Positions 519 through 2,406 of a stretch of DNA of 2,406 bases are shown piece by piece (positions within the stretch are counted from its first letter, which is position 1; the number at the start of each line of letters is the position of its first letter). The stretch lies in the IMG/VR virus record IMGVR_UViG_2695420644_000003. One strand, written 5' to 3'. The notes beneath the pieces are model-generated. The model did not search any database. It had not been told where the DNA came from and worked only from the letters and a program-made list of their open reading frames with translations. Origin of the DNA: a virus. Its lineage: Duplodnaviria; Heunggongvirae; Uroviricota; Caudoviricetes. The position numbers were made by a program, and so were the translations under genes.

Positions 519-1019
519 TTAATGCAGATATTGCTCTGGTTTTACCGATGTCAGAATTGTCGGTGCATACTCAAACAGACTGAATAATTCACGTAATGCA
601 CGGAATAAAGCATCACGCCAGTAACATGATTCTTCATTAATTCGCCAGTATGGCTGGTTGAATTCTTTTTCTGTCAATCTGGCATGCATAAATAAAGTAC
701 GCCGCTGACTGACTGTTAAAAAACTAATATATGCATACTCACTTGCACCGACCTGACGGCGTTTTGAGAATGCCCCACGCAATTCATCAATTGCACAAAC
801 CAGCCGTTCACGTTCGACATCGTTCATTTCTTCGAAACGCATCGTTGCGTGACGTTGTTTTAACTGCGCATGGAAGCAAACCGTTAGCCGTTCACGTTCC
901 ATCATCTGATTATAATAATCACATGTCTCCTGCCAGCGAGGGACGGCCAGATGCTTACCAATTATCCGGCGCATAGCTGCTGGCTGTTTTTCGACGAGAT
1001 TAAGTGTCATCACTGTCAT
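519..1019 (-). CDS. B: Replication protein B-like (166 aa), P2 early-operon type
   Basis: 166-aa minus-strand ORF with ATG at 1019..1017 preceded by GGAGG (8-nt spacer). Its start overlaps the stop of the upstream small ORF (ATGA). Position (third gene after cox) and length match phage P2 gene B as I recall it (166 aa). Assignment rests on synteny, size and memory, not an alignment. Confidence 0.7.
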   Translation of the reverse strand: MTVMTLNLVEKQPAAMRRIIGKHLAVPRWQETCDYYNQMMERERLTVCFHAQLKQRHATMRFEEMNDVERERLVCAIDELRGAFSKRRQVGASEYAYISFLTVSQRRTLFMHARLTEKEFNQPYWRINEESCYWRDALFRALRELFSLFEYAPTILTSVKPEQYLH

Positions 1020-1196: not shown

Positions 1197-1472
1197 TTAA
1201 CGTGGTTCACCGAGACCTAACCACATCAACCAGCCGTCACGAATCTCTTTAGGGCGGCTTTCATAAGCCAGTTTTAGTCCGTTATTCCATGCCGGAAGGT
1301 ATACCCAATATTCACCTGCACGACCTGAAGCTGATTGTGGATCGGTCATATCAATTACAGGCAGCTTTCCTTTATCGATCATCCGACGAACCGCTCCTGT
1401 CGATTTTCCTATTAGTTTTGCGAACTCCTGATAAGGAATCGCATCAGTCATGAGTGTTACTTGCTTGCTCAT
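1197..1472 (-). CDS. cox: Cox-like excisionase / lysogeny-switch regulator (91 aa)
   Basis: 91-aa minus-strand ORF with ATG 1472..1470 preceded by GGAGG (5-nt spacer); first gene of the leftward operon, divergent from the repressor gene. Length equals P2 Cox (91 aa, from memory). The segment IPYQEFAKLIGKSTGAVRRMIDKGKLPV followed by GEYWVYLPAWNNG has the look of an excisionase-type winged-helix DNA-binding protein. Confidence 0.8.
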   Translation of the reverse strand: MSKQVTLMTDAIPYQEFAKLIGKSTGAVRRMIDKGKLPVIDMTDPQSASGRAGEYWVYLPAWNNGLKLAYESRPKEIRDGWLMWLGLGEPR

Positions 1473-1583: not shown

Positions 1584-1593
1584 ACCATGTCAA
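1565..1593 (-). promoter_or_regulatory. Candidate leftward early promoter (Pe-like): -35 TTGACA (plus-strand 1588-1593), 17-bp spacer, -10 TAGTAT (plus-strand 1565-1570)
   Basis: Perfect -35 consensus and optimal spacer on the minus strand; -10 keeps the most conserved positions (TA...AT). Predicted start near 1557-1559, about 85 nt upstream of cox. The -35 overlaps the repressor start codon (1587-1589). Confidence 0.55.
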
Positions 1594-1886
1594 ACACGAT
1601 AAGCGAGAAGATAGTCTTAATGCGAAAATCAGAGTATTTGAGCAGACAACAACTTGCTGATTTAACAGGGGTTCCGTATGGCACGCTGAGTTACTATGAA
1701 AGTGGTCGTTCAACACCTCCAACAGATGTCATGATGAACATCCTGCAGACCCCACAATTCACCAAATACACTTTATGGTTCATGACCAATCAGATCGCTC
1801 CTGAGTCCGGGCAAATTGCGCCCGCTCTCGCACACTTTGGGCAAAACGAAACAACGTCGCCCCACTCCGGTCAAAAGACTGGTTAA
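1587..1886 (+). CDS. C: Immunity repressor, HTH DNA-binding protein (99 aa), P2 C-like
   Basis: 99-aa plus-strand ORF (ATG 1587, TAA 1884-1886). N-terminal segment SRQQLADLTGVPYGTLSYYESG fits a helix-turn-helix. Divergent from cox and immediately upstream of int on the same strand, as in P2; length equals P2 C (99 aa, from memory). Weak Shine-Dalgarno (GAGA about 10 nt upstream). Confidence 0.8.
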   Translation: MSNTISEKIVLMRKSEYLSRQQLADLTGVPYGTLSYYESGRSTPPTDVMMNILQTPQFTKYTLWFMTNQIAPESGQIAPALAHFGQNETTSPHSGQKTG

Positions 1887-1888
1887 CA

Positions 1889-1910
1889 ATTCATCGTGAA
1901 TATATTCATC
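1889..1910. promoter_or_regulatory. 12-bp perfect palindrome TGAATATATTCA (1897-1908) flanked by direct repeats ATTCATC (1889-1895, 1904-1910) in the C-int spacer
   Basis: Read directly from the sequence; function unknown. Candidate protein-binding site (Int, IHF or other) or RNA element. Confidence 0.35.
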
Positions 1911-1925
1911 ACAAGTGCCTACTAT

Positions 1926-1948
1926 TGGTGGCTAAATTTCAGCCACCA
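1926..1948 (+). other. Perfect 8-bp stem / 7-nt loop hairpin (TGGTGGCT-AAATTTC-AGCCACCA) followed by A6, about 55 nt upstream of the int start
   Basis: Inverted repeat read directly. Followed by an A-tract on the plus strand and preceded by a T-tract on the minus strand, so it does not fit an intrinsic terminator on either strand; candidate mRNA processing or translational-control element for int. Confidence 0.35.
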
Positions 1949-2001
1949 CGAAAAAAGCGATTAGTAGTCGCCAAAAAACACACCACTCGGAGGGTTTTCT
2001 G

Positions 2002-2406
2002 ATGGCAATCAAAAAACTCGATGATGGTCGATATGAAGTGGACATCCGCCCTACTGGACGTAATGGAAAACGCATCCGTAGGAAGTTTGATAAGAAAAGC
2101 GAAGCTGTCGCTTTCGAGAAATACACGTTGTACAACCACCACAATAAAGAATGGCTATCAAAACCAACAGACAAGCGACGTCTGTCGGAGCTGACACAGA
2201 TCTGGTGGGATTTAAAGGGTAAACACGAAGAGCATGGGAAATCTAATCTTGGAAAAATTGAAATCTTCACAAAAATAACGAATGACCCATGCGCATTTCA
2301 AATTACGAAATCGCTTATCAGCCAGTACTGCGCCACCCGAAGAAANTNNGNNNANNCCCAGGCCATCGCATGCCACTGGCAATCACCGGCATCGGCAAGG
2401 CATTGA
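2002..2406 (+). CDS. int: Tyrosine integrase, N-terminal (arm-binding) portion only; reading frame closes at 134 aa with TGA at the window end, after ambiguous bases at 2346-2356
   Basis: ATG 2002 preceded by GGAGG (8-nt spacer). The N-terminus (KKLDDGRYEVDIRPTGRNGKRIRRKFDKKSEAVAFEKY) has the pattern of a phage integrase arm-type DNA-binding domain. A complete integrase would be over 300 aa with a C-terminal catalytic domain, which cannot be present in this window. Whether the 134-aa stop is real or an artefact of miscalled bases cannot be decided from the sequence. Confidence 0.65.
   Translation: MAIKKLDDGRYEVDIRPTGRNGKRIRRKFDKKSEAVAFEKYTLYNHHNKEWLSKPTDKRRLSELTQIWWDLKGKHEEHGKSNLGKIEIFTKITNDPCAFQITKSLISQYCATRRXXXXXQAIACHWQSPASARH
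2346..2356. other. Patch of ambiguous base calls (N at 2346, 2348-2349, 2351-2353, 2355-2356) inside the integrase reading frame
   Basis: Read directly from the sequence. Confidence 0.95.

Follow-up and report, generated by a model that had tools for sequence, protein, structure and literature searches.

The window analysed here (2,406 nucleotides (nt) of IMG/VR record IMGVR_UViG_2695420644_000003) is, by its match to the reference genome, the immunity region of phage P2 (cox, C, and int), nt 56-2344 sharing 98.1% identity with nt 25133-27421 of P2 (AF063097, reverse strand). The subject of this report is the 115-nt spacer (nt 1887-2001) that separates the immunity repressor gene C from the ATG of the integrase gene int at nt 2002. 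Annotators and gene callers treat this interval as intergenic in every record examined, and no feature was annotated in it in P2 or 13 relatives. Comparison among relatives of P2 showed that selection keeps open, with codon structure, a frame in the -1 position relative to C, from approximately nt 1821-1838 within C to nt 2002, and that a conserved predicted hairpin takes in both the int Shine-Dalgarno sequence and the AUG. This -1 frame, which ends on the int start, may be the means by which the production of integrase is linked to repressor synthesis. The features concerned were as follows.

1587-1886, plus strand: C, the immunity repressor gene, 99 amino acids (aa), first gene of the Pc operon (open reading frame and P2 gpC annotation)
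1884-1886, plus strand: stop codon of C
1805-2002, plus strand: unannotated open frame, -1 relative to C, reading ...SRTLWAKRNNVAPLRSKDWLTIHREYIHHKCLLLVAKFQPPRKKRLVVAKKHTTRRVF* with the stop TGA at 2000-2002
1821-1886, plus strand: probable dual-coding zone, the last approximately 21 codons of C, with suppressed synonymous variation
1838-1841, plus strand: invariant T-GGG, the GGG nearly fixed and the TGG coding for Trp in the -1 frame
1872-1877, plus strand: CAA AAG (A-AAG motif), a candidate -1 slip site
1984-2026, plus strand: predicted int-start hairpin, outer stem 1984-1989/2022-2026
1992-1998/2013-2019, plus strand: inner stem of this hairpin, GGGUUUU/AAAACUC
2000-2003/2008-2011, plus strand: apical stem of this hairpin, UGAU/AUCA
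2000-2004, plus strand: TGATG, shared by the -1-frame stop and the int start codon
2002-2344, plus strand: 5' part of int (P2 integrase), the match to P2 ending at 2344

Coding signature of the -1 frame

C-int junctions were gathered from annotated phages, E. coli prophages, one genome per species, and IMG/VR, and 113 distinct variants with homologous C ends (..S.QKTG*) and int starts were obtained; P2 relatives were present in about a third (1798/5426) of the complete E. coli genomes searched. The spacers fell into length classes of 63-66, 69, 75, 84, 93, 96, 102, 112-115, 124, and 142-145 nt, and it was because these lengths differ by multiples of three that the -1 frame was followed up. In 110 of the 113 variants, which covered the 63-145 nt classes, this frame was free of stops from the C stop to within -2 to +8 of the int ATG. 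Seven mutually dissimilar spacers were all stop-free, for which the joint probability in shuffled sequences was about 4e-5. Spacer length was 0 or 1 modulo 3 in 111 variants; with a length of 2 modulo 3, the -1 frame would run on in phase with int and yield a C-Int fusion, and the absence of such lengths suggests that this fusion is counter-selected. The two spacers that had this length (74 and 77 nt) possessed aberrant C ends and look miscalled.

Codon structure was observed in several spacer classes. For 20 diverged, clearly homologous long spacers (112-145 nt), which could be aligned without gaps over the first 91 columns, the -1 frame contained 0 stops as compared to 28-59 in the other five frames, 49% of its single-base codon differences were synonymous as compared to 14-35% in the other frames, and its entropy at the three codon positions was 0.90, 0.80, and 1.21, respectively. 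The synonymous fraction was 0.58 in the 69-nt class (0.12-0.16 in the other frames) and 0.33 in the 66-nt class (0.14-0.15). Indels occurred in multiples of three in the -1 frame. The 13 P2-type nucleotide variants specified about six -1-frame peptides, their microvariation being often synonymous in this frame (CGT/CGC, GAA/GAG, AAG/AAA, GTC/GTA, and GCC/GCA), and C1972 of the window, which is A in the reference, was among these synonymous changes. By comparison, protein-coding selection acts on the -1 frame in every P2-type C-int junction examined.

An alternative is that the spacer acts as a non-coding structured leader, in which the P2 hairpin at nt 1926-1948, a palindrome, and A-tracts serve as RNA elements and int expression is set independently of spacer translation. 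RNA structure cannot explain the 3-base periodicity, the 49% of synonymous changes, the stop-free frame, or the multiple-of-three indels, and we consider this alternative improbable; the structural evidence bearing on it is given below. An earlier note on this DNA, made from the window alone, had taken the spacer to be non-coding, which is probably wrong, given the clear coding signature of the -1 frame that crosses it.

Two other frames were tried and rejected. Read-through of the C stop in the C frame would meet 13 stops in the 66-nt class and 39-59 in the long family, with a low synonymous fraction; past the C stop, this frame was open for 25 codons in P2 and throughout the 69-nt class. A minus-strand open reading frame at nt 1932-2270, antisense to int, was dropped because minus frames have 28-59 stops in relatives.

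The end of the -1 frame was similarly constrained, its stop being located at -2, +1, or +8 of the int start in 108 of the 113 variants. Spacers of 1 modulo 3 invariably carried TGA at -2 or ATGA (40/40), and those of 0 modulo 3 carried TAA at +8, formed by ATT AAG, in 68 of 71 cases. When distinct types of translation initiation region were counted, int codon 3 was ATT in 20 of the 21 types that need this UAA, whereas ATT and ATC occurred 6 and 5 times where it is not needed; types of the other class had TGA at -2 or ATGA in 11 of 11. As these counts indicate, the placement of the -1-frame stop is selected.

Overlap with the 3' end of C

In P2, the first canonical start in the -1 frame is TTG at nt 1925, which lacks a Shine-Dalgarno sequence. 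The spacer might accordingly contain a free-standing upstream reading frame (in P2, from TTG 1925 or GTG 1928 to TGA 2002, 25 aa) that is coupled to int without any frameshift. Such a frame is present in P2 with its stop overlapping the int ATG, and some relatives possess an in-frame ATG at the Y-M-H position. However, neither the TTG nor the GTG at 1925-1928 is preceded by a Shine-Dalgarno sequence, the start position is not conserved, and seven loci (L023, L171, L021, L026, L159, L199, and L235) have no ATG, GTG, or TTG in frame. In addition, the coding signature begins before any such start and reaches into C, and a free-standing frame is thus regarded as very unlikely.

A survey of 81 distinct C 3' ends revealed that synonymous diversity, mostly about 0.4-0.8 up to codon -22, collapses thereafter. 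It was 0.16 at CCG(-21), approximately 0 at CTC(-19), CAC(-17), and codon -16, and 0.07 at GGG(-15), and many of the codons after -15 had values below 0.25. Codon -16 always ended in T (third-position entropy 0) despite encoding F, I, N, S, Y, D, or V. The -1-frame peptide specified by this region in all classes was W-(A/C)-(R/K)-x-(N/Q)-x-(I/L/V)-x-P-(L/I)-(R/K)-x-(K/E)-(D/N)-W-(L/V). The codon for Ser-6 was almost only TCC or TCA (third-position entropy 1.0), by which Leu-Arg (CTC-CGA or CTC-AGA) is kept in the -1 frame of the sequences read.

The crystal structure of P2 C traces residues 2-85, the last 14 residues (86-99) being disordered, and removal of the last 9 residues leaves repression intact; the authors of the structure described the C-terminal half as the more conserved half of the protein (PMC2995052). 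Residue 85 is encoded by the GGG codon. A dispensable tail with frozen synonymous sites is as overlapping coding predicts. The arrangement found, that is, a conserved overlapping frame that begins in the 3' end of the upstream gene, lacks a start codon of its own, and is under coding constraint, is like that of genes expressed by programmed -1 frameshifting.

As for the point of entry, CAA AAG was present in 16 of 18 tails of the long family, and the short classes had a mixture of CAG AAA, CAG AAG, and CAA AAG. This candidate slip site cannot account for the constraint upstream of nt 1872-1877. Hairpins were located past the C stop in some classes, not at canonical spacing from the A-AAG.

Hairpin over the int start

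Folding of the P2 sequence predicted, in both the minimum-energy and the centroid structure, a stem-loop GGGUUUU-c-UGAU-ggca-AUCA-a-AAAACUC (nt 1992-2019), and the hairpin encloses the AUG and the 3' half of the Shine-Dalgarno sequence GGAGGG (nt 1989-1994). The same two-tier hairpin was predicted in all 75 distinct initiation regions (-18 to +30), with an outer stem pairing CAUCG with the Leu-Asp-Asp codons and an inner stem pairing GGGYUUY with RAARCUC. Its mean minimum free energy was -14.3 kcal/mol (-12.1 in P2) with a mean z of -2.1, and 87.6% of the cells were paired as compared to 29-60% when the partner was slid. Among the five gene starts in the window, that of int was the least accessible, with a mean probability of 0.27 for being unpaired from the Shine-Dalgarno sequence to the AUG.

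One pair covaried, namely that between the base after GGG and the third position of Lys codon 5 (C-G 41, U-A 23, U.G 2, mismatched 9). On an int-based tree about five of the changes at this pair coincide, and the initiation regions of L185 and L178 differ at just two paired bases, U-A versus C-G. Furthermore, CAUCGGAGGG was common to both spacer-length classes and is read in different frames in the two (IGG.. versus HRR..), so that its conservation is attributable to the RNA, in support of the hairpin.

P2 int is reported to be autoregulated after transcription, with Int binding its own mRNA (Yu, Barreiro & Haggard-Ljungquist 1994, J Virol 68:4220, listed as a viral autogenous example in PMC11789052); this would concern the same gene and the same Pc transcript. 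We conjecture that the int-start hairpin is the most plausible target of this reported autoregulation. It could then be argued that only this hairpin matters, keeping Int low and being bound by Int, with the -1 frame a relic or by-product that is not usefully translated. Consistent with such a view are the prediction of the hairpin in all 75 initiation regions, the autoregulation cited in that source, and the finding of no slippery site in the last 21 codons of C. However, a relic would gain stops, of which 110 of the 113 variants have none at 30-50% nucleotide divergence, and the synonymous excess, the stop placement, and the suppressed synonymous sites in the C tail point to ongoing selection on translation. 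The hairpin as the sole functional element is therefore considered unlikely.

In the records of L006 (SI7), L007 (YenM 42.18), and L012 (fiAA91-ss), the int start was annotated 27-30 nt upstream, at GTG or ATG. The GGAGGG-N-ATG is the conserved int start used in other records, and the upstream starts are probably an annotation inconsistency.

Proposed coupling of int to C

On balance, and with modest confidence, we favor the explanation that the -1 frame is translated, that this translation opens the int hairpin, and that ribosomes reinitiate at int. A minority of the ribosomes translating C would shift to the -1 frame within the last approximately 15-21 codons of C (about nt 1821-1877) and would make a variant of C in which the dispensable tail is swapped for an extension of about 40-55 residues. 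On their passage they would melt the int hairpin, terminate at UGA 2000-2002, and reinitiate at AUG 2002; as in known cases of termination-reinitiation, the upstream stop was found to overlap or adjoin the downstream start. Ribosomes binding independently would be largely excluded by the hairpin, and Int synthesis would be a small fixed fraction of C synthesis. The more specific proposal that recoding in the repressor gene, at a non-canonical site about 15-21 codons before the stop, sets the integrase:repressor ratio, that the extended repressor is itself under selection, and that ribosomes are handed over to a masked int at UGAUG, AUGA, or UAA(+8) is advanced tentatively, as a serious possibility that falls somewhat short of an even chance.

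Several observations weigh against translation of the -1 frame and its coupling to int. No canonical or conserved X XXY YYZ heptamer was present in the last 21 codons of C. In 11 variants of the 66-nt class, the sequence reads ..CCU GAU GGG.., with a -1-frame UGA directly before the conserved UGG, so that entry would have to take place exactly at that point or the UGA would have to be read through (L162, L029, L178, L239, L218, L198, L216, L188, L166, L209, and L246, the UGA being situated 49-47 nt before the C stop). The extension peptide, which varies in sequence from one spacer class to another, had no homologue in a set of 5.8 billion proteins and matched nothing in Pfam or PHROGs. The int-start hairpin was not called by RNAalifold in the long-spacer alignment, and only a single pair covaried, as the 3' arm is fixed by the Int protein sequence. 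The support for -1-frame translation is wholly comparative, and the sequences are related, so the counts given above overstate the number of independent events.

Isoforms produced by -1 frameshifting are known for E. coli dnaX, the OrfAB of IS911/IS3, lambda G/GT, and the P2 tail chaperones E/E', and in B. subtilis cdd a -1 frameshift takes place at CGA AAG near its stop. P2 thus already uses -1 frameshifting in E/E', and two products from one gene in a fixed ratio, as in these systems, are predicted for C. Unlike the classic cases, the C-int junction showed neither a conserved X XXY YYZ heptamer nor a positioned stimulator, and the end of the C extension coincides exactly with the beginning of the next gene, suggesting that its translation also delivers ribosomes. 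Masked starts opened by upstream translation are exemplified by the coat gene of MS2, coupled to replicase and lysis, and UGAUG and AUGA overlaps by trp and other operons. The C-int junction resembles these in that the int Shine-Dalgarno sequence and AUG lie in a predicted hairpin and that the -1 frame ends on or near the int AUG (UGAUG, AUGA, and UAA at +8); it differs from MS2 and trp in that the upstream frame would be a shifted continuation of an annotated gene, with coupling, as proposed, through rare recoding. Retroregulation of lambda int (sib/RNase III) and the intercistronic stabilizing hairpins of malE-malF are devices of like purpose, uncoupling the integrase level from a co-transcribed regulator, and the P2 hairpin with its A-rich tract resembles a 3' protective hairpin. 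Unlike lambda sib, the P2 element is located upstream of int, has a stem too short for RNase III, and is not conserved. Frameshift isoforms and masked-start coupling are known devices; their combination between a phage repressor and its integrase was not found in the annotations seen or in the searchable literature, the coverage of which did not include Yu et al. 1994. Literature searches on nip1 and on frameshifting in the P2 C gene likewise gave nothing relevant.

P2 has long served as a model temperate phage, and int is needed for both integration and excision. How int is expressed has reportedly been an open question since the split-operon proposal of Bertani. If true, the coupling described here would provide a concrete, testable mechanism for a fixed low Int:C ratio, would explain why the dispensable, disordered C tail is so conserved and why spacer length is constrained modulo 3, and would add an unrecognized repressor isoform and a new layer to the lysis-lysogeny switch of this phage. 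Int expression may be altered in engineered P2 and P4 systems when C or int is moved without the interval.

Sequence elements of the P2 spacer

The elements described in the earlier note were all located in the window: ATTCATC direct repeats at nt 1889-1895 and 1904-1910, a perfect 12-bp palindrome TGAATATATTCA at nt 1897-1908 bracketed by them, a perfect 8-bp stem TGGTGGCT/AGCCACCA at nt 1926-1933/1941-1948 with the 7-nt loop AAATTTC, A6 tracts at nt 1951-1956 and 1973-1978, and the int Shine-Dalgarno sequence. Its statement that the main hairpin lacks terminator geometry also held, A's following the hairpin on the plus strand and T's preceding it on the minus strand; a GC-rich stem followed by a U-tract, as in intrinsic terminators, was not found at nt 1926-1948. 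The int-start hairpin, the TGATG overlap, and the frame open across the spacer had not been mentioned there. One further segment was delimited.

1951-1978, plus strand: A-rich segment (A 45%, U 12%) with the two A6 tracts and a small hairpin GCGAT..GTCGC (1957-1971)

Each of these elements is also coding in the -1 frame, the region of the repeats and palindrome (nt 1889-1910) for IHREYIHH, the 8-bp hairpin (nt 1926-1948) for VAKFQPP, and the A-rich segment (nt 1951-1978) for the basic tail RKKRLVVAKK.

At the RNA level, the predicted free energy was -13.0 kcal/mol for the hairpin at nt 1926-1948, -5.3 for the small hairpin, and only -1.4 for a hairpin formed by the palindrome. When the spacer was shuffled 5000 times with its dinucleotides preserved, the probability was 0.009 for a perfect hairpin of 8 bp or more, 0.019 for a palindrome of 12 bp or more, and 0.0004 for the two together, and folding of a 141-nt region on the plus strand gave a z of -2.7. 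This rarity is in favor of the structured leader, which might work, for example, through a hairpin protecting the 3' end of the C cistron, with RNase E cutting in the A-rich tract, or through binding of a protein. The hairpin at nt 1926-1948 was invariant among 80 near-identical P2-type copies. In a common P2-type variant (720R8-type), however, the first repeat copy was ATTTATC and the small hairpin was broken, and the length of the A-runs varied among P2-type copies. Among the 20 homologous long spacers, the hairpin at nt 1926-1948 was paired in 40% of the cells, equal to the background of slid controls, and RNAalifold found no consensus structure in the spacer body. The repeats, the palindrome, and the 8-bp hairpin are thus real but P2-lineage-specific, with no conserved role apparent by comparison, and may at most modulate ribosome transit or mRNA stability in P2 itself. 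The proposal that int is controlled separately from the repressor after co-transcription was sustained as a general idea, at the level of RNA or translation, but the elements singled out for it are not the conserved ones.

Other structures were observed in particular classes. In members of the long family (L004, L020, L163, L195, L024, and others), a hairpin ACATGCA-N7-TGCATGT was located 16-36 nt past the C stop. It was 73.6% paired among long-family relatives, with 2 compensatory pairs, and is degenerate in P2, where the weak palindrome occupies its position; a compensation from G-C to A-U gives ACATACA..TGTATGT. This hairpin might act on ribosomes in the shifted frame, either as a stimulator or by making them pause. 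The 69-nt spacers (L008 Wphi, L006 SI7, L011, L012, and IMG/VR relatives) contained a hairpin CACCAU-N11-AUGGUG, about 25-47 nt upstream of int and inside the -1 frame (..FTICYQD..), which is changed to CACUAU..AUAGUG in SI7-type phages, with U.G intermediates, as a compensatory change. Folding of the spacer body gave z values of about -3 for the 69-nt class and about -2.4 to -3 for the classes of 112, 124, and 145 nt, and no excess structure was found in the 66-, 75-, 93-, and 102-nt classes. Hence, for the structured leader, above-chance structure in the former classes and the compensatory changes in the long-family and Wphi-type hairpins stand against the background-level pairing at nt 1926-1948, the lack of a consensus, and the four classes without excess.

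No match was obtained in the spacer with Rfam covariance models, even at E values up to 10, and a sigma-70 promoter scan detected no int-specific promoter there. Rho-dependent attenuation may occur in the tract at nt 1940-1990, which is rich in C (31%) and poor in G (18%).

As a further explanation, the repeats could be bound as DNA by Int, IHF, Cox, or C, or they could form a minus-strand terminator that shields the switch from read-in transcription. The geometry of the inverted repeats is compatible with a dimeric DNA binder, and one weak 5-bp hairpin followed by a T-run, the sole terminator-like candidate, was flagged on the minus strand at nt 1972-1956. However, this candidate has just a 5-bp stem, which is disrupted in the 720R8-type variant, and the repeats lack conservation. 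Scans with the Int arm site TGTCCACA, read off the P and P' arms as annotated, the IHF consensus WATCAANNNNTTR, the Cox box TTAAAGNCA, and the C half-site ATCTAAAC gave no match inside nt 1887-2001, and window-wide the counts of such matches were at or below chance. Since the P2 annotation places attP, together with its sites for Int, IHF, and Cox, downstream of int, the C-int interval is not the attachment site, in accordance with the failure of the earlier note to identify an attachment core; the protein-binding site that it had suggested found no support in these scans. We regard this explanation as extremely improbable.

On the minus strand, TGTCCACT at nt 2037-2044 matched TGTCCACA in 7 of 8 positions. 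It lies inside the conserved int codons Y-E-V-D-I and is probably coincidental, such matches being below chance window-wide. A pairing of TCATCG (nt 1891-1896) with CGATGA (nt 2019-2024) was dropped because the 5' partner is not conserved.

Gene layout and other observations

C and int constitute the "lysogenic operon", which is transcribed from Pc (PMC3936717; PMC1904263). The remaining features of the window were as follows.

519-1019, minus strand: B, with part of orf80, a terminator, and orf78 in the same region (P2 annotation and open reading frame list)
1197-1472, minus strand: cox (P2 annotation and open reading frame list)
1554-1561 and 1576-1583: C operators ATCTAAAC in the Pc/Pe switch (P2 annotation)

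Nucleotides 1-40 of the window matched E. coli sslE and nt 2357-2406 matched a gene for an IclR-family regulator. N-rich stretches at nt 41-55 and 2346-2356 join these non-P2 ends to the P2 segment, and the contig looks like a chimeric or low-quality assembly join. Of the 43 differences from the P2 reference, 38 were located in the orf80-B segment (nt 196-1025) and 1 in the spacer (C1972). With the C-int part near-identical to P2 and the replication-gene part more diverged, mosaicism is suggested.

Elsewhere in the P2 part, the only perfect hairpin that reached 8 bp was TTTAGTGC-N10-GCACTAAA at nt 1520-1545. It is located at about the 5' end of the Pc transcript, where the Pc and Pe transcripts overlap by approximately 35 nt, and might serve as a 5' stabilizing stem-loop or a switch element.

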